A stretch of DNA of 64,000 nt. It comes from Deferrisomatales bacterium (GTDB taxonomy: Bacteria; Desulfobacterota; Deferrisomatia; Deferrisomatales; JACRMM01). A program made the translations under genes and the position numbers. Each line of letters opens with the position of its first letter. Positions within the stretch are counted from its first letter, which is position 1. The notes beneath the pieces are model-generated. The model saw only the letters and a list, made by a program, of their open reading frames with translations, ran no database searches and was not told the origin of the DNA. Location of the stretch: the NCBI GenBank assembly GCA_033551855.1, contig JAWSUI010000002.1:64001-128000 (forward strand), written 5' to 3'. Shown here piece after piece: positions 25,774 through 50,820 of the stretch.

Positions 25774-27534
25774 ATGAGGATCCCCGACGAGGTGCTCGAA
25801 GCCGTTCGGTCACGGGTCTCCATCGTCGATGCGGTGGGCCGCCACGTGGCGCTGAAGCGCGCGGGGAGGAACTGGAAAGGACTGTGCCCCTTCCACGCCG
25901 AAAAGACGCCCTCTTTCGTCGTGAACGAGGAGCGGGGGACCTACCACTGTTTCGGGTGCGGCGCGGGGGGGTCGGTCTTCCGGTTCCTCATGGAGGTCGA
26001 GGGTCGCTCCTTCACAGAGGTCGTGGGGTCCCTCGCGGCTGAAGTGGGGGTGACCCTGCCCCGGGGAGCCAACGAAGATCCCGGTGCTCGACGGGAGCGG
26101 GCCGAGCGCGACGCCCTCCTCGACGTGCTGTCGCTGGCCCAGCGCTACTACCGCCACCAGTTGGAGGCGGGAAGGGCGGGAGGGCCGGCCCGGGATTATT
26201 TGACCCGGCGGGAGGTGGGGCCAGCGGTGGCAGAGGCCTTCGGCCTGGGGTGCGCCCCAGCGGGCTGGGACCACCTGGCGCGCTACCTCCGGGGCAAGGG
26301 CGTCGACTTGTCGGTGGCGGCCACCGCCGGGCTCGTGGCGCCCCGGGCCTCCGGCAACGGGTTTTACGACCGCCTTCGCGACCGGCTGGTGTTTCCGATC
26401 CAGGACGGGCAGGGGCGGGTGGTGAGTTTTGGCGGGCGCGTCCTCGGGGAGGGGGAGCCCAAGTACCTGAACGGGCCGGAGAGCCCCGTCTTTCGCAAGA
26501 GCGAGGTGCTGTACGGCCTTCCCCAGGCAGCGGAAGCCGTGCGGCGCGAGCGCCGCGCCCTGCTCGTGGAAGGGTACTTGGACGTGATCAGTCTCCACGC
26601 CCGGGGCGTTTCCACGGCTCTGGCGACCCTCGGGACCGCTCTCACCGCCGATCACATCCGGGCCCTGCGCCGGAGGGCCGACGAGGTCGTGCTGGTCTAC
26701 GACGGGGACGAGGCGGGCCGCAGGGCCGCATTTCGGAGCCTGGACCTGTTTCTCTCCGAAAGGTATCCGTGCCGAGGCATCCTGCTGCCGCCGGGGGAGG
26801 ATCCGGACAGCTTCATGCGCGGCGGGGGCGACCTGGCCTCCCTGGCTGCTTCGGCGAGGCCGTTGCTTGAGCTGTACTTGGAGGAGAGTGCGTCGCGTTT
26901 CGACCTGACTTCCGTCGAGGGAAGGGTGGCGGCTGTCGACGACCTGGCTTCGCGCCTCGCGGTGGTGTCCGATGCCCTGGCCCGGGATCTCTATGTGAAG
27001 CAGGCCGCCGAGGCGCTGGAGGTGGATGAGGCCCACTTGAGGACGCGCCTTCGCGCCGGATCCCGGCGCCCCGGTGCTGCGGCTCCGACGCAAGGGGACG
27101 CCGAGGTGCCGGAGGACCCCATCGAGCGCAGTCTGTTGGCCTGCCTTCTTGCGCATCCCGAGCACCGGCAAGCCTTCCGGAGCCGTGGGGTCGAGGAGTG
27201 GCTGCGTCCCGGGCCGCTGAAGGAGGCGGCCCGCTTCGTGGCCGCTCGATCGGAGGCAGCCGAGCAGTTCCCCGTGGACGAGGCCCCGGAGGCGGCCCGC
27301 CGGGCCCTCACCCGGTCCCTCGTAGACGACCGGGCACCGAACCCGGGGTATCCCCAGGTGGAGGCCGCCTTGCGGGTCCGACACCTCTCGGGCCGGACCG
27401 CAGCCCTCGTGCGCGAGATCGCCAGAGCGGAGCGGGGGGGGGACGCCGAAAGGGTCCTCGCCCTGCAGCGGGAGAAGACCGCCCTCGACCGGGCGCTCTC
27501 CGAGTGCAGGCGTCCACACCCGGAGCACGGGTAG
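25774..27534 (+). CDS. dnaG: DNA primase DnaG
   Basis: CPFH...CFGC zinc finger, KYLNGPE, VEGYLDV, YDGDEAG, GEDPDS. Confidence 0.96.
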   Translation: MRIPDEVLEAVRSRVSIVDAVGRHVALKRAGRNWKGLCPFHAEKTPSFVVNEERGTYHCFGCGAGGSVFRFLMEVEGRSFTEVVGSLAAEVGVTLPRGANEDPGARRERAERDALLDVLSLAQRYYRHQLEAGRAGGPARDYLTRREVGPAVAEAFGLGCAPAGWDHLARYLRGKGVDLSVAATAGLVAPRASGNGFYDRLRDRLVFPIQDGQGRVVSFGGRVLGEGEPKYLNGPESPVFRKSEVLYGLPQAAEAVRRERRALLVEGYLDVISLHARGVSTALATLGTALTADHIRALRRRADEVVLVYDGDEAGRRAAFRSLDLFLSERYPCRGILLPPGEDPDSFMRGGGDLASLAASARPLLELYLEESASRFDLTSVEGRVAAVDDLASRLAVVSDALARDLYVKQAAEALEVDEAHLRTRLRAGSRRPGAAAPTQGDAEVPEDPIERSLLACLLAHPEHRQAFRSRGVEEWLRPGPLKEAARFVAARSEAAEQFPVDEAPEAARRALTRSLVDDRAPNPGYPQVEAALRVRHLSGRTAALVREIARAERGGDAERVLALQREKTALDRALSECRRPHPEHG

Positions 27535-41217: not shown

Positions 41218-41838
41218 ATGACCGAGACCGCCGTTGCCCCGTGGCACGCCGAGGGGCTCCTGTTCGAGAACTGCAGCTGCACCCTGGTGTGCCCTGGCCA
41301 CGTCCACTTTTCCCAGGGATGCACCCTCGACCGCTGCGTGGGCTACTGGGCGGTGCGCTTCGACGCCGGGGAGATCGACGGGGTGGATCTCGCGGGGGCG
41401 AAGGCGGTGGTGGCGTTCGACTCGCCCCAACACATGATCGAGGGGGGCTGGACCCAGGTGCTGGTCCTCGACCCGGCGGGCGCGGAGGCCCAGCGGGCCC
41501 AGGTGGAGAGGATCCTGCGAGGGGAGGCGGGCGGTCCCTGGGCCGTTCTCGGCCGCTTCGTGGGCGAGCGGCGGCCGACGATCCTGGCGCCGATCGTCAT
41601 CGAGGACGAGGGTCGCGTCAAGAAGGTGCGGGTCGAGGGGCTCCTGGATGCCCGGGTCGAGGCCATCCGGGGCCGGGACAAGGGCCGTGAGGTCACCTTC
41701 GAGAACATGTTCAACCAGATCCACCCCCCCAGCCAGGTGCTGGCGCTGGGGTCCACCGTCTTCGACGACGGGGAGATCCGGATCGGCACCAAGGACTCCC
41801 ACGCCCTGTACTCCCACTTCACCTGGCGGGTGGGGTGA
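41218..41838 (+). CDS. DUF1326 domain protein
   Basis: W..EG..FENCSC.LVCP...C...C.GYW...G.IDGVDL.G...P..MIEG.W...Q...ERI..GEAGGP; paired with DUF2182. Confidence 0.85.
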   Translation: MTETAVAPWHAEGLLFENCSCTLVCPGHVHFSQGCTLDRCVGYWAVRFDAGEIDGVDLAGAKAVVAFDSPQHMIEGGWTQVLVLDPAGAEAQRAQVERILRGEAGGPWAVLGRFVGERRPTILAPIVIEDEGRVKKVRVEGLLDARVEAIRGRDKGREVTFENMFNQIHPPSQVLALGSTVFDDGEIRIGTKDSHALYSHFTWRVG

Positions 41839-42659
41839 ACCCGGAGCGGCGTCCCCGGCCGCCCCTCACGGCCGGGGCGCTGGGCCGCCAGCAGAAGGCG
41901 GCGATCCTCCTGGCCAGCGGGCTCCTGGTGACGGCCCTCTATGCCTATCTTGCGGCCGCGCACCCGGGGGAGACCCTGCTGGGTCGGGCCGCGGCCGCGG
42001 GGCCGCAGGCCGGTCTCGGCCACCTGGGGCACGGGGCCCTGGGGCACGGCCCCGGGGCCTCGCTGCCGGCGGCGTCCGCCATGTGGATGGCCATGATGGT
42101 GGCCATGATGCTTCCCCCGGTGCTCCCCTGGATCTGGTTCTTCGCGGCCGCCACGCGCCCGACGGCCCCCGGCCGGCGCCTGTGGGGGCGCACCGTGGTC
42201 TTCGCGTCCGGCTACTTTGCCCTGTGGGCGCTCTACAGCGTCTCCGCCGCAGGGGCACAGACGGGGCTGGCGGCCCGGGCCCTCCTCCACCCCACGGCGC
42301 TCAAGGTCGCTCCGGCGGCCGGGGGGGTGCTCCTCCTTCTCGCGGGGGCGATCCAGTTCTCCCCCCTCAAGAGCGCGTGCCTCAAACACTGCCGCTCCCC
42401 CGTGGGCTACTTCCTGACCCGGTGGCGGGACGGCCCTCGGGGCGCCTTCTCCATGGGGTTTCGCCACGGGCTCTACTGCCTGGGGTGCTGCTGGGCGCTC
42501 ATGGCCCTGGCCTTCGCGCTGGGCACCATGAACCTCGTGTGGATGGCGGCCGTCAGCCTGCTCCTGTGCGTGGAGAAGATCGCCCCGGGGGGGGAGCGAT
42601 GGAGCAAGGTCTTCGGCGTGGGCCTCCTCGCCTGGGGCGCGGCCCTGCTCCTCGGGTAG
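41835..42659 (+). CDS. DUF2182 predicted metal-binding membrane protein
   Basis: MWMAMMVAMMLP, GY..W, QFSPLKSACL.HCRSP, G.YCLGCCWALM, MNLVWM, EK. Confidence 0.9.
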   Translation: MNPERRPRPPLTAGALGRQQKAAILLASGLLVTALYAYLAAAHPGETLLGRAAAAGPQAGLGHLGHGALGHGPGASLPAASAMWMAMMVAMMLPPVLPWIWFFAAATRPTAPGRRLWGRTVVFASGYFALWALYSVSAAGAQTGLAARALLHPTALKVAPAAGGVLLLLAGAIQFSPLKSACLKHCRSPVGYFLTRWRDGPRGAFSMGFRHGLYCLGCCWALMALAFALGTMNLVWMAAVSLLLCVEKIAPGGERWSKVFGVGLLAWGAALLLG

Positions 42660-42931: not shown

Positions 42932-44026
42932 CTACCTCCCGGCGGGGAAGAGGTCCGCGTAGCGTCCGTGCCCCTCCCCCTCCAGGTCCACGGCCGGGAC
43001 GAACCGCAGCGCCGCGGAGTTGATGCAGTAGCGCCTGCCGGTCGGGGGCGGGCCGTCGGGGAAGACGTGACCCAGGTGGGAGTCGGCCCCCCGGCTTCGC
43101 ACCTCGACCCGGGTCACGAAGAAGCTCCGGTCCTCGAGCTCCACCACGTTCCCGGGCTCCAGGGCGCGGGTGAAGCTCGGCCACCCCGTGCCGGAGTCGT
43201 ACTTGTCCAGGGAGCTGAACAGCGGCTCGCCGGAGACGACATCGACGTAGATCCCGGCCTGCTCGTGATTCCAGTAGGCGTTGTCGAAGGGGGGCTCGGT
43301 CCCGTCCTCCTGGGTGACCCGATACTGGAGGGGCGTCAGGCGGCGGCGCAGCTCCTCGGCGGGGGGCTTCGCGGCGCCGCGGGCTTCCTGCGGGGGCGCG
43401 CCTGCGGGCGGCGCCGCGGCTCCCTCTCCCCACACCTTCCCGAGGAACTGGTCCCGGCCCGAGCTCCAGCGGTAGTACAGGTACCTGAGGGAGTGGGTCC
43501 TGTGGTAGTCCTGATGATACTCCTCGGCCCGGTAGAATGCGGTCAGGGGCACGATCTCGGTGACGATGGGCCTTGCGAACCGCCCGGAACGGGCCAGAGC
43601 GTCACGGGACTCCTCCGCCAAGCGCTTCTGCTCGTCGTCGGCGTAGAAGATGGCCGTGCGGTACTGGGGACCCCGGTCCACGAACTGTCCTCCCGGGTCC
43701 GTCGGGTCCACGTGCCGCCAGAAGACGTCGAGCAACTCGCGGTAGGACACGCGGCCTGGGTCGTAGGTCACCTGCACCACCTCCAGATGGCCGGTGTCGC
43801 CCCCGATCACCTGCTCGTAGGTGGGGTTGGGCACGTGCCCGCCCGCGTAACCCGAAACCACCTCGAGCACGCCCGTGACCTTCTCGAAGTCGGCTTCCGT
43901 GCACCAGAAACAGCCGCCGGCAAAGGTGGCGGTGGCGGGGCCGTCGCCCTCGGCGGAGGAGCCCGCGGGGCCGGCGCCCCACGCGGCGGCGAACAGCACT
44001 GCAGCAAGAGCGATGTGAAACGTCAT
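42932..44026 (-). CDS. msrAB: Exported bifunctional methionine sulfoxide reductase MsrA-MsrB
   Basis: Signal peptide; [14 protein letters not shown]; Msr[30 protein letters not shown]. Confidence 0.95.
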
Positions 44027-44199
44027 GGGGTACACCTCCGCGGGCGGTCTGCGGGGGAGCCCGGCTGCCTCCCCTCCCTCGCCCTTCGCCACACAGCATA
44101 ACCACTGCCGCCTGCGCCGGCTCCCGAGAAGGGGGCAAGGGTGTGGGGAGGTCGGGGCGGGGGAGAGGGGGGTGAGGCGGTCGGGCTTGGAGGCGGGTT

Positions 44200-45435
44200 C
44201 TAGACGGGGCGCACGGCGCAGTATTTCTTCTTGCCGGCCCGCAGGAGCACCGCCCCGTCCCGGAGGTCGGCCGTGGTGATCCGCCGGTCCAGAGCGGTCA
44301 ACGGTTCGCTGTTCACGTAGGCGCCGCCCTGCTGGATCAAGCGCCTAGCCTCACCGCGGCTCTTGGCGAGACCGACCTCCGCGAAGAGCACGAACGCCTC
44401 GACCCCGGCCTCCAGCGCTGCAAGGGGCACCTCGTGAGAGGGGACTTGGGCCAGGTCGCCGCCCCCTGCGAAGAGGGCCCTGCTGGCGGCGCGGGCCTTC
44501 GCGGCCTCCTCCTCCCCGTGGATGATCGCCGTCACTTCGTAGGCCAGTACCTCCTTGGCGGCGCGGAGCTCGGCGCCCCCCAGGGACGCGAGGCGCCGCA
44601 CCTCCCCCATGGGGAGGAAGGTGAAGAGCCCGAGGAAGCGCCCCACGTCCGGGTCCTCGGTGTTGATCCAGTACTGGTAGAAGTCGTACGGGCTCGTGCG
44701 GTCCGCCGCGAGCCACACCGCCCCTTGGGCGGTCTTGCCCATCTTCGCCCCCGAAGACGTGGTGATGAGCGGAAAGGTGAGGGCGTGGGCGGTCTTGCCC
44801 TCGACGCGCCGGATCAGGTCCACCCCGGCCAGGATGTTCCCCCACTGGTCGTTGCCCCCCATCTGGAGCGCGCAGCCGTGCGTCTGGTGGAGGACCAGAA
44901 AATCGTAGGCCTGGAGCAGCATGTAGTTGAATTCGATGAAGTTCAGGCCGGTCTCGAGGCGCTGTCTGTAGGACTCGGCCGCGAGCATCCGGTTGACGGA
45001 AAAGTGGATGCCGATGTCCCGGAGAAACTCGATGTAGTTGAGCGGGACGAGCCAGTCGGCGTTGTTGAGGAGCAGGGCGCCTGTCTCGAAGTCGAGGACC
45101 CGTGCGAGCTGCGCTCGGATGCCCAAGCCGTTCTGCTCGATCTCCTCACGGGTGAGCATCTTGCGCAATTCGGTCCTCCCCGAGGGGTCGCCGATCAGGG
45201 TGGTGCCGCCTCCCAGGAGCGCGATGGGGCGGTGCCCGGCCCGTTGCATGTGCGCCAGCCCCATCACCGGCAGGAGATGCCCGACGTGGAGGCTCGAGGC
45301 GGTGGGGTCGAAACCGACATAGCAGGTCAGCGGCGCGACGGACGGCCTGCCGAGGGCCTCCCGCAGCTCCCCCTCGTCGGTGGACTGCTCCAGGAAACCG
45401 CGCTCCCGGAGGGTGTCGAAGACGTGTTGGGCCAT
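44200..45435 (-). CDS. tyrS: Tyrosine--tRNA ligase
   Basis: [38 protein letters not shown]4 domain, RAGKK. Confidence 0.97.
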
Positions 45436-45466
45436 GGGCTCGCTCCTTCGGATCTGGGGACGGCGA

Positions 45467-45545
45467 ATCATAGCAACGGCCCTAGGGGCGGTCAACGGCG
45501 GGTCCATGCAGGGCGGTTGGACGGGGCCGGAGAGCGTGCTATATA
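45467..45545. promoter_or_regulatory. Divergent sigma70 promoters (tyrS / primase-mqn operon)
   Basis: Minus strand: TTGACC 45495-45490, 17 bp, TGc-TATGAT 45472-45467. Plus strand: TTGGAC 45517-45522, 17 bp, TGc-TATATA 45540-45545. Confidence 0.65.
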
Positions 45546-45594
45546 GCAGGAGTGCCCCGCCTGCTCGGGCGGGTGCGGCCGAGCCGGGTGCGCC

Positions 45595-46752
45595 ATGGAC
45601 CGACCCCTGGAGCCGGGGCCCACGCGGGCCGAGGTGCTGCGCACTTACTGCCTCGTCGACTTCGCGGCGCGCCGGCAGCCGGGGTTTCGCAACCACCTGG
45701 TGCCCGTGGGCCGGATCGCCGAGCTGACAGGGCGCTACGGGGCCTACGGGTGCTACGCCACCTTCTATCTGTACGACGAGGCCGTCCGTGCCCACGCCCG
45801 CTCCCGGGGCACACAGGGCCGGCCGTCGGTGGCGGGGTACGGGGGTCCGGTGTACGCCCCGGTGTGGCCCCTGGACATCGATGCGCCCGACCTGGAAGTG
45901 GCCCTGGAGGCGGCGCGGGCCGTAGAGGCCCATCTGGAAGGGGCCTGGGGGCTTCCCCCGGAGGCGATGCGGCTCTACTTCAGCGGGAAGAAGGGGTTTC
46001 ACGTGACAGTCGACACGCGGCTCTTCCGCGCGCCGACCCCTTCCCGAGCGGCACCGGAGCTTCTGCACCGGCTCACCCGCCGCTTGGCCCGGGAGCTCGG
46101 CGTCCCGGGGTCGGGCTCCCTGGATCTCTCCCTTCGGGACCGGGTGCGGCTGCTGCGTCTGCCCAATACCCGCCACGAGGAGAGCGGGCTCTTCAAGACC
46201 CCTCTGGCGCCGGACGAGCTGCGCTCCCTGGGAGTGGATGGGATTCGGCGGCTGGCGCGCACGCCTCGGCCCCTCTGGCGGGTGGACCCTTCGGGGCTCC
46301 TCTTCGGGGGCTCGGCCGTCGTGCTGCCCCGGGCGCGGGCCGTCCTGGAGGAGGTGGCTGCGGAGAGCGGCCCTTCGCCCCCGCCGCCAGCGAAATGCCT
46401 GGGCGGCGGCGCCCGCGACGAGGTGCTGGCGTGCCCTGCCCGGCGCGCTCTCCTGGAGGCGCCGGCCCCGGCGGGGCAGCGCAACAACACGGCCATTCGC
46501 CTGGCCTCCTGGCTCCGGGAGGGGGGGTGGGGGGAGGAAACCGTGGCCGCGCGCATGGACGAGTGGAACCGGGCCAACCCCGCACCGCTAGGGGAGGACG
46601 AGGTGCGCCACGTCGTCCGCTCGGCCTTCGCCGGCCGGCAGCCGTACCGTTACGGCTGCCGGGACGCCCTGATCGAGCCCCACTGTCCCCGCGACGTCCG
46701 GGAGCGGGGGCGCTGTCCCTATCATCAGGGGCAGGAAAGGAGCAGCCCGTGA
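45595..46752 (+). CDS. Archaeo-eukaryotic primase (AEP) superfamily primase-polymerase with PriCT-1-like domain and Cys-rich C-terminus
   Basis: Motif I LDID, motif II YFSGKKGFH, motif III LD, RLLRLPNTRH; PriCT GQRNNTAIRLASWL...WN..N..PL.EDEV...VRSA; YGC-x8-C-x9-C. Confidence 0.85.
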   Translation: MDRPLEPGPTRAEVLRTYCLVDFAARRQPGFRNHLVPVGRIAELTGRYGAYGCYATFYLYDEAVRAHARSRGTQGRPSVAGYGGPVYAPVWPLDIDAPDLEVALEAARAVEAHLEGAWGLPPEAMRLYFSGKKGFHVTVDTRLFRAPTPSRAAPELLHRLTRRLARELGVPGSGSLDLSLRDRVRLLRLPNTRHEESGLFKTPLAPDELRSLGVDGIRRLARTPRPLWRVDPSGLLFGGSAVVLPRARAVLEEVAAESGPSPPPPAKCLGGGARDEVLACPARRALLEAPAPAGQRNNTAIRLASWLREGGWGEETVAARMDEWNRANPAPLGEDEVRHVVRSAFAGRQPYRYGCRDALIEPHCPRDVRERGRCPYHQGQERSSP

Positions 46753-47513
46753 GGCAGGCGCTGGATGTGCTCTGCGTTGGTGCCACCCACGCGGAGGTTC
46801 GGGCGCTGGAAGCGGAGCTCGCGAGGTCCCAGGCGTGCCGGGCGGCGGGGCGGCCCTGCCGCTGGGGGCGGATCGGGGAGTTGCGCGTCGGGGTCCTGGT
46901 CACCGGGGTGGGGAAGGCCAATGCGGCCCTCACCCTTGGAGAGGCCCTGGGGTCGGTTCGCCCTGCTCTGGTGCTCGCTGTGGGGGTAGGGGGAGCCTAC
47001 CCGTCTTCGGGACTGGGGGTCGGCGAGGTGGCCGCCGCTACCGAGGAGATCTACGGGGACGAAGGGGTCGAGACCGCCGAGGGTTTTCTGGGGATGGAGG
47101 AGCTCGCTCTGCCCCTCTGGGAGGACGCCGAGACGCGCCGCTTCAACCGTTTCCCCGCCGATGCGCGGGTCGTGACGGCCCTTCGCGGCGCCGGCGCCGG
47201 CGGCGTGCCCCTCCGGACCGGCCCTTTCGTGACCCTGTCCACGGTGACCGGCACCCAGACCCGGGCCCAGGAGCTGCAGCGCAGGTTCGGGGGGGTGTGC
47301 GAGACCATGGAGGGCGCGGCCTTCGCCCACGCTGCCGCGGTGCATCGCCTCGCCTTTGGGGAGGTCCGGGGCGTCTCCAACCCGGTGGGGCCCCGGGAGC
47401 GGGACGCCTGGCAGGTGGAGGCCGCGGCGGCCGCGGCGCAAGACGTGGTGTTGCGGTTCCTGGCCCAGTGGTGCCCGGAGGCCGCGGAGAGACGGCCGGG
47501 CGCTGAGGATTGA
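46749..47513 (+). CDS. mqnB: Futalosine hydrolase
   Basis: TGVGKANAA, GVGGAY, EIYGDEG, TLSTVTGT, ETMEGAA, EVRGVSNPVGPR..W; directly upstream of mqnD. Confidence 0.9.
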   Translation: MRQALDVLCVGATHAEVRALEAELARSQACRAAGRPCRWGRIGELRVGVLVTGVGKANAALTLGEALGSVRPALVLAVGVGGAYPSSGLGVGEVAAATEEIYGDEGVETAEGFLGMEELALPLWEDAETRRFNRFPADARVVTALRGAGAGGVPLRTGPFVTLSTVTGTQTRAQELQRRFGGVCETMEGAAFAHAAAVHRLAFGEVRGVSNPVGPRERDAWQVEAAAAAAQDVVLRFLAQWCPEAAERRPGAED

Positions 47514-47551
47514 CGCCCCGGTGCGAGGGCGCGGGCCGGGAAGGAGCGAGC

Positions 47552-48394
47552 GTGGGACGCACCATCGGGGTGGGCTACTCCCCCTGCCCCAATGACACCT
47601 TTCTCTTCCATGCGCTGGTGCACGGGCTGGTCGACACCGAGGGGTACCGTTTCGAGCCGGTGCTCGAGGACGTGGAGACGCTGAACCGTTGGGCGCTGGA
47701 GGCGAGGCTCCCCCTGACGAAGGCGAGCTTCGGGGTGCTCGGACAAGTCCGGCGCCGCTACTGGTGCCTTCGGTCCGGCGGGGCCCTGGGGTGGGGGTGC
47801 GGGCCCCTGCTGGTGGCCCGGGAGGCCAGGCCGCTGGAGGAGCTCGTGCGGACGCCGGTCCTCGTGCCGGGGCTCCACACGACGGCCAACCTGCTCCTGA
47901 CCCTGCGGGCCGGACGGGCCGTGGAACGCCTGCCCCGGGTGTTCCACGAGGTGATGCCGGCCGTAGCCCGCGGGGAGGCTGCTTCCGGGGTGATCATCCA
48001 CGAGGGGCGCTTCACCTATCACCGGCACGGGCTCGTCGCGGTGGAGGACCTGGGGGCTTGGTGGGAGCGCGAGACCGGGCTCCCCATCCCCCTGGGAGGG
48101 ATCCTGCTCCGACGGGGGGAGGCGGGGGTGGACCCCGCGGTCGTGCAGCGGGCGGTGCGGCGCAGCGTGGAGCACGCCCTGGCGCACCCCGACGCACCCA
48201 TGCCGTACGTGCGCAGTCACGCCCAGGAGTTGGAGGACGGGGTCATCCGGGACCACATCCGTCTCTACGTGAACGACTTTTCCCGGGACCTGGGGGAGCG
48301 GGGAATCCGGGCCGTGGAAGAGCTCCTGCAGGCGGCGGCCCCCGGGGACGGGGGGGAGGCGCCGGAGACCCTGTTTCCCCCCGCGGACCCGTGA
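47552..48394 (+). CDS. mqnD: 1,4-dihydroxy-6-naphthoate synthase
   Basis: GYSPCPNDTF, DVETLN, GGALG.GCGP, IIHEGRFTY, WWERETGLPIPLG, HIRLYVNDFS. Confidence 0.95.
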   Translation: MGRTIGVGYSPCPNDTFLFHALVHGLVDTEGYRFEPVLEDVETLNRWALEARLPLTKASFGVLGQVRRRYWCLRSGGALGWGCGPLLVAREARPLEELVRTPVLVPGLHTTANLLLTLRAGRAVERLPRVFHEVMPAVARGEAASGVIIHEGRFTYHRHGLVAVEDLGAWWERETGLPIPLGGILLRRGEAGVDPAVVQRAVRRSVEHALAHPDAPMPYVRSHAQELEDGVIRDHIRLYVNDFSRDLGERGIRAVEELLQAAAPGDGGEAPETLFPPADP

Positions 48395-49200
48395 GCGGGG
48401 CCCAGGGCTTCGGCGGCCCCCGAGCCGTGTCTCCGGTGGTGCTCGTGCACGGGCTGGGAGTCGATCACCGCATGTGGTCCCTGCAGGTGCCGCACCTGCA
48501 GCAGGTGGGCCCCGTGTGGGCCCCGGATCTGCCGGGGTTCGGCGCGTGCCCGCCCCTGCCGGTCGAGCGACGCACGCCGGAGGGGTACGTGGACTGGCTC
48601 GCCGCCCGCCTCCGGGAGCGGGGCGCCGGCGCCGTCCACGTGGCCGGTTACTCGATGGGAGGAACCCTCGCCCTGCTCCTGGCTCTCCGGCATCCCCGGA
48701 GGGTTCGCAGCCTGGCCCTGTGCTGTTCCTCCCCCTGCTGGGGCCGGGGTGCGCGGCACGCGGCGGCCTTCGCTTTCGGGGCGCTGGGCGGCAGGTTCGC
48801 CATGGAGGTCTTTGTGCGATCGGTGGAGTGGGGGTTCGCGCGTTACAGCGCCGATCCGGGGCTGAGGGCCGAGGTGGCCGCCATGGTCCGGGGGGCCGAT
48901 CGGGCCACCATGCTCTCGCTCTACCACTCGCTGGCCGGGACCGACCTCCGGGCGGAGGTGCCGCGGGTGGCCGCCCCGGCGCTCGTGGTGGGCGGGACGC
49001 GAGACTGGCTGGCTCCTCCGTCCCACCAGAAGCTTCTGGCCCGGGCGCTGCCCCGTGCCGAGCTGCGGCTCGTGAAGGGCGGGAACCACATGTTGTGCGC
49101 GGCGCAACCCGAGGAGTTTGGCGGCCTCCTGCGGCGCTTCTTCCGGGACGCGGGAGAGGGCCCCGTTGGGCCGGGAAAGGCGGCGTGGCCGGGATGGTGA
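48391..49200 (+). CDS. Alpha/beta fold hydrolase
   Basis: LVHG, DLPGFG, nucleophile elbow GYSMG, GG.RD, G.H. Confidence 0.88.
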   Translation: MSGAQGFGGPRAVSPVVLVHGLGVDHRMWSLQVPHLQQVGPVWAPDLPGFGACPPLPVERRTPEGYVDWLAARLRERGAGAVHVAGYSMGGTLALLLALRHPRRVRSLALCCSSPCWGRGARHAAAFAFGALGGRFAMEVFVRSVEWGFARYSADPGLRAEVAAMVRGADRATMLSLYHSLAGTDLRAEVPRVAAPALVVGGTRDWLAPPSHQKLLARALPRAELRLVKGGNHMLCAAQPEEFGGLLRRFFRDAGEGPVGPGKAAWPGW

Positions 49201-49730
49201 ACGAAGAGGTCAAGCGGTTCCTTCGGGGGCGGGACTTCGCGGTCCTGTGCGTGGTGCTCGACCTGGGGGGGGGCCCCGAGGCCGTGGTGGTGGTCAAGTC
49301 CACCGCCGACCTCCTGGCCGGCCTCCGGCTGGCGCAGGCCCCGGTGGAGATGGGGTGGGCGCTGGAGCGGACGCCCCATGGACCGGTGCTCTGCCTGGTC
49401 GTCCGTTGTGCCGGCGACGGGGTGGGGGAGTTGGCCGGGGAGGCGTATTTCGATCCTGCGGACCAAGAGGATCTGAGCCTCCTCGAGCGCCTCGCCGGGC
49501 AGGAACGGGTGCGGGCGGCCTTCCTGGACGAGGAGCTCCAACCTGTGTGGCTGGCGGAGGAAGAGTGGGACGAGGTGCGCCGTCTGGAGACCGAGCAGGT
49601 GCGGGACCGGTTGGAGGAGCTCCGGGAAAGGTGCCGGCAGTACGACTTCGAGGCGGCGAAACGGGCCTTCCAGGACGAGCTTCCTCTGGCACGCCTCCTG
49701 GACCGAGTCTTCCGGGGCTCCCGGCCGTAG
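49194..49730 (+). CDS. Hypothetical protein
   Basis: Overlaps the upstream stop; GC3-biased frame; PHGPVL...EAYFDP...DFEAAK..FQ. Confidence 0.7.
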   Translation: MVNEEVKRFLRGRDFAVLCVVLDLGGGPEAVVVVKSTADLLAGLRLAQAPVEMGWALERTPHGPVLCLVVRCAGDGVGELAGEAYFDPADQEDLSLLERLAGQERVRAAFLDEELQPVWLAEEEWDEVRRLETEQVRDRLEELRERCRQYDFEAAKRAFQDELPLARLLDRVFRGSRP

Positions 49731-49905: not shown

Positions 49906-50820
49906 TCACCGGGGCTCGAAGCCTCCCTTCGCCCGGTTCCACTCGTACACGGACGCTCCCCAGAGCCGGCGGAGGTCGGCCGGGTCCATCCCGAGCCCTT
50001 GGGCTGCCTCGAGGCGTTCCAGCGCGTCGAGGACCTCCGCGTCGCTGATCTGGAAGTCGGCGTTCTGGTCGGCCCAGTGCACGAACTCGAGGTCGATCCG
50101 GCTCTCCCCGCGCACCGGGATCCCGCTCCCTTCCGCACCGGGTGGCACCACTTCCCCCGAAAAACGGTGGGCCGATCCTTCCGCACCGTCGGCCGGGGCT
50201 CGGACGAGGTAGGCAAGCCGATTGGTCCCGTCCTCCAGGGGGAGGATCCACTTGAGGATCCCGTCCGGGGTGGGCCCCTGATCGGGGTCCGGCACCGCGC
50301 CCAGAAGGGTCCAGTCCGGCGGCAGGGTCTCCCGGAGCACCACCCGCTGGGGGGACCCCGAGACCGCTCGCAGGTGCACCACCACCGGCACTTCCGTGCC
50401 GGGTGGCGTGTAGGACGGTAGCCGGCGCATCGCCTCGACGACGACGAGGGGGGGCGGGCTGATCCAATGCCATGCCGCCCAGAGTCCCAGGAGGCCGAGG
50501 GCGGCCGCCCCCGCCAGCCAGGGCAGGAGCCGCCGGGGCTGGCCCTCGGCGGCCCCCTCGGCGCCGGTGCCCCACGCGTCTGCCTCCGGTTCCTCCAACA
50601 GGAGATCCTCGAGCGGGCTTTCCAGGGCGTCGGCCAGGGCTTGGGCGTTTTCCCGTTTCACCGCGGGCGTTCGATTGTTCTCCCACCGGCTCACCGTGTC
50701 CACGCTGACCTTGGCCACCTCGGCCACGTAGAGCTGGGTGAGACCCTTGGCCTCCCGCAGCAGGCGCACTTTGTCGCCGTCGAGCCTCACCGTGGGGGGT
50801 TTGCGAACCAGCGATGTCAT
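49906..50820 (-). CDS. Membrane-anchored XRE-family HTH protein with extracytoplasmic beta-sandwich and EF-hand/dockerin-like tail
   Basis: LREAKGLTQ..VA....VS..TVSRWEN HTH, one TM, LRETLPPDW...KW...LAY beta domain, ADQNADFQISDAE. Confidence 0.8.
   Translation of the reverse strand: MTSLVRKPPTVRLDGDKVRLLREAKGLTQLYVAEVAKVSVDTVSRWENNRTPAVKRENAQALADALESPLEDLLLEEPEADAWGTGAEGAAEGQPRRLLPWLAGAAALGLLGLWAAWHWISPPPLVVVEAMRRLPSYTPPGTEVPVVVHLRAVSGSPQRVVLRETLPPDWTLLGAVPDPDQGPTPDGILKWILPLEDGTNRLAYLVRAPADGAEGSAHRFSGEVVPPGAEGSGIPVRGESRIDLEFVHWADQNADFQISDAEVLDALERLEAAQGLGMDPADLRRLWGASVYEWNRAKGGFEPR

Follow-up and report, generated by a model that had tools for sequence, protein, structure and literature searches.

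The window (here, the whole stretch of 64,000 nucleotides that was analyzed) encodes a stand-alone AEP primase of 385 amino acids (P0001, positions 45595..46752, + strand), which we interpret, with roughly even confidence, as a helicase-less single-chain primase of archaeal type that the host would keep as an accessory enzyme, one that would act outside the DnaG replisome to reprime or fill gaps when the cell is stressed or growing slowly. The observations behind this interpretation are an intact AEP active site, a PriL-CTD/PriX-like domain, a chromosomal site, purifying selection, joint inheritance of gene and locus, a patchy distribution, and the presence of intact dnaG and priA in the same genome. 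Weighing against it are the rarity of the gene, which was detected in 7/21 class genomes, 23/301 Binatia, and 5/77 genomes of a Scalinduaceae-centered order (one of the five a weak 634-aa frame), the broken-looking state of some copies (L027, L065, L089, and G126, where assembly error is possible), and two copies, L051 and L057, that are probably mobile (see below).

Domain architecture and predicted structure

The open reading frame has no internal stop codons and is a real gene. The protein comprises a PriS-like catalytic domain (approximately residues 14 to 256; 45634..46362, + strand) carrying D94/D96, S130, K133, H136, D177, R185, R188, and H194, a linker, and a helical C-terminal domain (46408..46728, + strand) similar to PriCT-1 and the PriL CTD, with R296 and a predicted metal site made up of C280, C355, C364, and C374. 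Among 46 aligned homologs, D94/D96, the stretch S130-G-x-K133-G-F-H136, D177, D182, R185, R188, and H194 were invariant or nearly invariant, including full invariance at superfamily motifs I (hhhDhD; D94/D96), II (sxH; H136), and III (hD; D177). C280, C364, and C374 were also invariant, and C355 nearly so. Residues 287 to 344 matched Pfam PriCT_1 (E value of 4.3e-11). The intact AEP motifs, the PriCT-1-like domain, and the YGC-x8-C-x9-C spacing described in an earlier interpretation of the letters alone (the sequence-only reading) are thus borne out. Other profiles gave a weak match to Pfam DNA_primase_S (E value of 2e-4), a PriS score far under the cut-off in NCBIfam, and matches to phage primase families in PHROGs. 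One PHROG profile (E value of 4e-14) has 1028 positions, the length of BcMCM, a characterized primase-helicase of the phage/prophage type, and solely from this length we infer that it represents BcMCM. By sequence profile, the only significant relatives of solved structure were archaeal PriS proteins (E value of 3.5e-10), with D177 aligned to their conserved Asp; MpCAPP and DbCAPP were not matched in this comparison with PDB sequences.

The AlphaFold model of the full protein (pLDDT of 86.7) has the RRM-derived AEP fold that the earlier reading anticipated, matching PriS, LigD-Pol, Prim-PolC, and CAPP structures with Z scores of 10.8 to 12.7 and rmsd values of 3.4 to 4.3 over 180 to 220 aligned residues; Prim-PolC (Z of 12.2) and LigD-Pol (12.0) are among the top folds, and CAPP scored 10.9. 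The proposal of a PriS-like and a PriL-like module in one chain is supported, although the C-terminal domain resembles the yeast PriL Fe-S domain only weakly (Z of 4.0 to 4.7). The same domain matched PriX (7.5) and the helical domain of NrS-1 (6.1), all scores that are middling for helical domains, and when modeled alone it reached a pLDDT of 73, below the confidence of the full-length model. Matches in the ESM Atlas comprised one PriCT_1 cluster, in which Binatota were the commonest, and otherwise only viral clusters.

Similarity to known primases

The layout is that of NEQ395 from Nanoarchaeum equitans, a single chain of about 390 residues (393 in the archaeon) with a PriS domain, a linker, and a short four-Cys PriL-CTD (PMC10250227). 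Compared through published residue positions and layout rather than by direct sequence alignment, the catalytic spacing matches (S130/K133/H136 and D177-R188 versus S119/K122/H125 and D194-R205 in NEQ395), and the four cysteines are separated by 75, 9, and 10 residues versus 75, 12, and 8 in the archaeal protein (positions 289, 364, 376, and 384) (PMC10250227). In the accessible part of that report, arginines of the NEQ395 CTD are required for priming and the cluster is dispensable in vitro. These results suggest by analogy that the C-terminal site likely holds a 4Fe-4S cluster, with Zn still possible, that the cluster, if bound, is probably structural, and that R296 may hold the initiating nucleotide as a counterpart of R301/R303 in NEQ395. 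However, NEQ395 is the replicative primase of its cell, whereas the gene described here is an accessory one in bacteria with an intact DnaG, is not found in 14 of the 21 class genomes, and has its nearest relatives in phages.

Those nearest relatives are AEP-PriCT primases of phages and prophages (23 to 37% identity), with the motifs and the four-Cys set in common; because the cysteines are shared with phage proteins, they are no host invention. The phage enzymes often have a fused or adjoining DnaB, AAA_25, or DUF3987 helicase (in Bacillus phage vB_BceM_WH1, the primase is gp048 and DnaB is gp050, two genes apart), whereas the present primase has neither helicase nor phage genes, belongs to a separate clade, and is chromosomal with host promoters. 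Members of the PolpTN2/PrimPol-PV1 supergroup also combine AEP and PriCT-1 domains with a PriL-like region and a motif IV arginine, but as far as the available text of PMC5862659 goes they are nearly all carried on mobile genetic elements (MGEs), with extra WH, HTH, or helicase domains that are absent here. The H-R-H triad of our primase (H136, R188, and H194) is the one given there for archaeal PriS (PMC5862659). A literature search returned no description of the clade, although supplements (CAPP homolog lists and PrimPol-PV1 tables) or Iyer et al. 2005 could list members.

Genomic context within the class

The primase is the first gene of a run on the + strand. Its stop overlaps the GTG start of mqnB (futalosine hydrolase, 46749..47513, +; TIGR03664, 206 bits with a cut-off of 124.7) in the sequence GTGA, and there follow an mqnD-type menaquinone biosynthesis gene (47510..48394, +; PF02621, E value of 7e-70; start at TTG 47510 or GTG 47552), an alpha/beta hydrolase gene overlapping the mqnD stop (48391..49200, +), and a last gene for a 178-aa conserved protein of no known family (49194..49730, +; no Pfam, NCBIfam, or PHROG match), which is 57 to 72% identical in five relatives (one a partial match) and always located after the hydrolase. 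Co-transcription of the primase with mqnB is probable, because the genes overlap. The divergent neighbor is tyrS (44200..45435, −; Pfam tRNA-synt_1b, E value of 1e-85), an intact dnaG lies 18 kb away (25774-27534), and the primase has a GC content of 0.74 and a GC3 of 0.88, similar to mqnB. The GTGA overlap, the divergent tyrS, the intact dnaG, and the host-like GC had been noted correctly from the sequence, as had the absence of phage or integrase surroundings: there was no tRNA or Rfam match in the window, no convincing att-like repeat at 44 to 50 kb, and no integrase (12 window proteins were scanned with Pfam and the others judged from gene calls), and the primase is syntenic and inherited with mqnB. 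Elsewhere in the window, a DUF1326 and PpoB2 gene pair (41218-42659) and a fused MsrA-MsrB gene (42932-44092) lie beyond tyrS, not found at this position in the fetched relatives, and 49906-50790 encodes an HTH_3 protein that has a long C-terminal part as well as a predicted membrane segment and that in relatives is conserved beside a gene for a small cytochrome c-like protein.

In all 7 primase-positive genomes of the class the gene is located directly before mqnB, with the stop/start overlap; synteny of tyrS, primase, and mqnB in relatives was one of the checks proposed in the sequence-only reading. A long gene order (tyrS, promoter, two small desulforedoxin-like genes [PF06397], primase, mqnB) was found in G011, G013, and G015. 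The same order without the primase appears in G007, G009, G012, and G020, and in G008 and G010 the small genes are kept before mqnB with the primase missing. No remnants of the primase were detected at an E value of <0.1 in 10 primase-less loci; G014 gave no mqnB match above the cut-off, so the missing primase there is uninformative. Values of dN/dS were 0.22 to 0.41 for the primase (7 pairs, the high GC partly saturating dS) versus 0.20 to 0.60 for mqnB, dS was similar to that of the neighbors, and the primase tree had a shape like that of mqnB, its deep nodes being weakly supported. The position before mqnB, purifying selection, tree shape, and presence in a third of the class (7/21) indicate a domesticated but dispensable gene, which appears to be an old, selected, and repeatedly lost passenger of the operon. 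The chromosomal site, the selection, and the conserved locus also agree with the earlier view of a domesticated primase that is not prophage-borne. As a separate observation, most class relatives have the two desulforedoxin-like Cys proteins (PF06397, approximately 62 and 85 aa) at the start of the mqnB operon (e.g., L013:1463-1902, L124:7380-7819, and L129:6983-7431); both are missing from 45435-45595 of the window in this genus.

A consensus promoter scan recovered only the tyrS site, TTGACC-17-TATGAT (45467..45495, −; 10/12 matches, shuffle mean of 0.0). It missed a promoter-like site on the + strand, TTGGAC-17-TATATA with an extended -10 TG (45517..45545, +), which is conserved in relatives: 13 of the 14 relatives compared share the extended -10 TG(G/C)TATA at the equivalent position (six of these 13 lack the primase), and TGnTATA occurs just 70 times in the contigs of ≥20 kb of this genome. 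The sigma70-like promoter that had been assigned to the primase is hence real by conservation but not the primase's own; kept in 6 of the 7 primase-less genomes examined, it appears to be the ancestral site of the operon. Its -10 region (45537-45548) is a perfect 12-bp palindrome, TGCTATATAGCA, that contains the only two TGnTATA matches of the window and is not conserved as a palindrome in relatives. Insertions are concentrated upstream of the operon promoter, where three genomes have CRISPR-Cas or cas-like loci, one has dnaE2, and another has short tandem repeats (L011:5500-8540 in G016, L123:7760-14000 in G008, L125:1-3020 in G010, L126:7484-10600 in G017, and L127:7246-7810 in G020).

The most striking part of the sequence-only reading was a functional tie to menaquinone, in which the primase would be coupled to quinone synthesis by the futalosine pathway and would signal respiratory status or redox conditions by way of its Fe-S cluster. 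The stop overlap with mqnB in all 7 positive class genomes and the small Fe-Cys4 desulforedoxin-like genes in the same operon of relatives would fit such a coupling. However, mqnB flanks only 5 of 55 clade loci, all five from the class of the window and none outside it (at one Omnitrophota locus, an MqnA/D-like gene lies 2 kb off, past an opposite-strand gene). The operon, its promoter, and the GTGA coupling also occur without the primase, as in G012, where a small gene overlaps mqnB by the identical GTGA, and mqnC and a second MqnA/D-family gene are on other contigs of the genome. In addition, the cysteines are common to phage relatives, and Cys mutants of NEQ395 still prime, according to the accessible part of PMC10250227. 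A coupling of this kind is very improbable, and the link is not supported as function; what remains is positional, a local arrangement that, in the genomes examined, was confined to this bacterial class.

Phylogeny, distribution, and mobility

The names attached to the closest homologs suggest a Deferrisoma-related class for this genome. A profile search retrieved 4907 representatives at an E value of ≤0.001, and a GTDB-wide scan yielded 166 relatives, from which 79 loci were examined. FastTree separated a clade of mostly 350-to-420-aa proteins (91 of 208 rows, after 23 of 231 were excluded as partial or over-long), with a support of 98/91 in an unrooted IQ-TREE of 43 rows. We analyzed 55 clade loci, including four partial ones placed by identity and one pair with identical proteins. 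Many outgroup proteins are 570 to 1050 aa long; a scan of 15 such long proteins revealed DnaB, AAA_25, or DUF3987 domains in 7. DnaB-like sequence was found at 0/55 clade loci versus 28/80 viral loci and 7/24 outgroup genome loci (lower bounds, derived from one query), and the window has no HerA-like ATPase. The best viral matches to the primase had 33% identity, none of the 23 usable top ones fell inside the clade, and a plasmid search gave zero matches. The clade probably descended from primase-helicases of phages or mobile elements, followed by loss of the helicase and at least one domestication.

Two loci on separate branches of the clade, L051 (1110-8173) and L057 (940-7881), have a HerA/DUF87-like ATPase, the primase, and a serine recombinase consecutively (with a ThiF gene upstream in L057), and these copies are probably on mobile elements. 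This run is, in its own right, a possible uncharacterized type of integrative element. They give some weight to a reading in which the clade lives on integrative elements of this ATPase-primase-recombinase type and the chromosomal copies, having left them several times, are helpers or stranded replicases that persist because they prime the second strand of mobile DNA that enters the cell or already resides there, or else bring little benefit. The patchy presence across unrelated phyla with repeated losses would fit as well, and PriCT-bearing AEPs are described, in the part of PMC5862659 available, as exclusive to MGEs. On the other hand, among the genes scanned, 53 of the 55 clade loci had no integrase, recombinase, or terminase (many loci being cut by contig ends), and simple decay is hard to square with a gene long inherited under purifying selection and served by a conserved promoter of its own (see below). 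We regard this reading as rather doubtful.

Search for repair and defense partners

LigD PolDom and Prim-PolC are, like the primase studied here, chromosomal bacterial AEPs with an AEP-proper fold, and they are used in repair; they act with Ku/LigD or LigC and are not known to have a PriL-like domain. The genome (G000, rated 100% complete, 132 contigs) has priA and dnaG and gave no match for Ku, ATP-dependent ligase, or dnaE2, so the partners of those enzymes are missing both from the operon and from the genome. A second, weaker DnaG-like gene, possibly derived from a mobile element, lies on another contig (G000:C85:5532-6587). Across the class, ATP-dependent ligase was found in 2/7 primase-positive versus 1/14 primase-negative genomes, cas1 in 4/7 versus 5/14, and dnaE2 in 5/7 versus 7/14; in Binatia, the ligase was present in 12/23 positive versus 31/46 negative genomes (the 46 hand-picked from 278). 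There was no link of the primase with ATP-dependent ligase, cas1, Ku (five genomes only), dnaE2, or priA in these sets of nonindependent kin, and together with the lack of Ku, ligase, and dnaE2 in this genome, this means that no repair partner was identified. That the primase is a gap filler of the LigD/Prim-PolC type, serving end joining or base excision repair together with an ATP-dependent ligase, is suggested by the high rank of these two folds, but the ligase and Ku data oppose it and the presence of a PriL-like domain favors de novo priming, which makes it highly unlikely.

CAPP_A also consists of an AEP domain and a PriCT-like CTD with conserved cysteines, and helicase-fused non-CRISPR homologs of it are mentioned in the available text (PMC8211822). 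Our primase differs from CAPP_A in having neither a TPR nor an RT domain and no consistent cas1-cas2 linkage. A CAPP-like or antiviral role, in which it would provide prespacers for Cas1-Cas2 or act otherwise in defense, draws on the similarity to the CAPP fold and on G016, where a cas1-cas2-cas4 module and a CRISPR array are immediately upstream of the primase. Yet this is the only one of the 55 clade loci adjoined by cas1, and in G008 and G010, which lack the primase, the corresponding position holds a WYL gene together with cas-like genes. Across the class, cas1 showed no link with the primase (see above), and in the present genome it is on contigs other than that of the primase. A PADLOC scan matched 0/46 clade members to defense systems, and the sequence profile does not find CAPP; we consider such a role very improbable. 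With no repair partner, no consistent cas1 linkage, and no helicase, the primase would fall outside the LigD/Prim-PolC, CAPP, and MGE replicase groups, and it appears to work like a monomeric PriS-PriL primase.

Stress gene settings in other bacteria

In one subclade, a TATAAT-like box ends 6 to 7 nucleotides before the start codon at 20 of 23 primase loci and seems to be a conserved, dedicated leaderless promoter of the primase; the corresponding counts are 4 of 225 for non-primase genes at these loci and 2 of 28 for further primase loci. In Binatia, the primase often combines such a promoter with nearby stress genes of a dormancy type. By eye, only this -10 element, and no shared regulator box, was visible upstream of the primases. 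At least two genes of a stress or dormancy type (CBS, BON, USP, hemerythrin, ferritin-like, Hsp20, HPF, NAPRTase, RtcA/RtcB, Crp, ribonucleotide reductase, or prkA-spoVR) are found within 5 kb at 19 of the 55 clade loci, a raw count without a background rate that comes mostly from nonindependent loci of one Binatia lineage, and at these loci the primase is as a rule oriented away from them. In Binatia-type loci (L018 to L067; e.g., L029, L040, and L217), there is a recurring island with CBS, BON, hemerythrin, ferritin-like, USP, NAPRTase, and ribonucleotide reductase genes and, furthermore, GAF-PAS kinase, sigma-54 regulator, and sigma-70 genes, which we take to resemble hypoxia or dormancy regulons such as DosR. 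An S30AE protein is reported under DosR control in the available part of PMC3390679. In other settings, one copy is located inside a mutasome cassette (imuA-imuB-primase-dnaE2, L054:2136-9971) and one after prkA-yeaH-spoVR (L036).

Possible role

For the host-kept accessory primase that we favor, every step beyond the protein anatomy is conjectural. The enzyme would bind single-stranded gaps on the chromosome without a helicase partner, begin a short primer with the help of its C-terminal domain, and pass it to a host polymerase; the outcome would be repriming past stalled forks and gap filling, an aid in stress or slow growth. Along these lines, a PrimPol borne by an MGE supports genome stability in Thermus, as stated in the accessible part of PMC9751324. 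As for the history of the locus, the primase probably entered an older operon consisting of the promoter, the two desulforedoxin-like genes, mqnB, and mqnD, and the later loss of the two small genes in this genus would have left it in first position. A broader version, in which phage-derived PriS-PriL(4Fe-4S) primases were domesticated repeatedly as a DnaG-independent repriming enzyme for dormancy and redox stress, a bacterial counterpart of eukaryotic PrimPol that is possibly Fe-S-tuned, is a tentative and, on balance, unlikely extension.

Among chromosomal AEPs of bacteria, those with an established job are, to our knowledge, the LigD, Prim-PolC, and CAPP types. If our interpretation is correct, this list would grow by a primase that has a PriL-like metal domain, works without a partner, and is kept by its host, and some bacteria might reprime without DnaG. 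As a single chain of 385 aa, the protein would also be a handy model for the role of the Fe-S cluster of primases.
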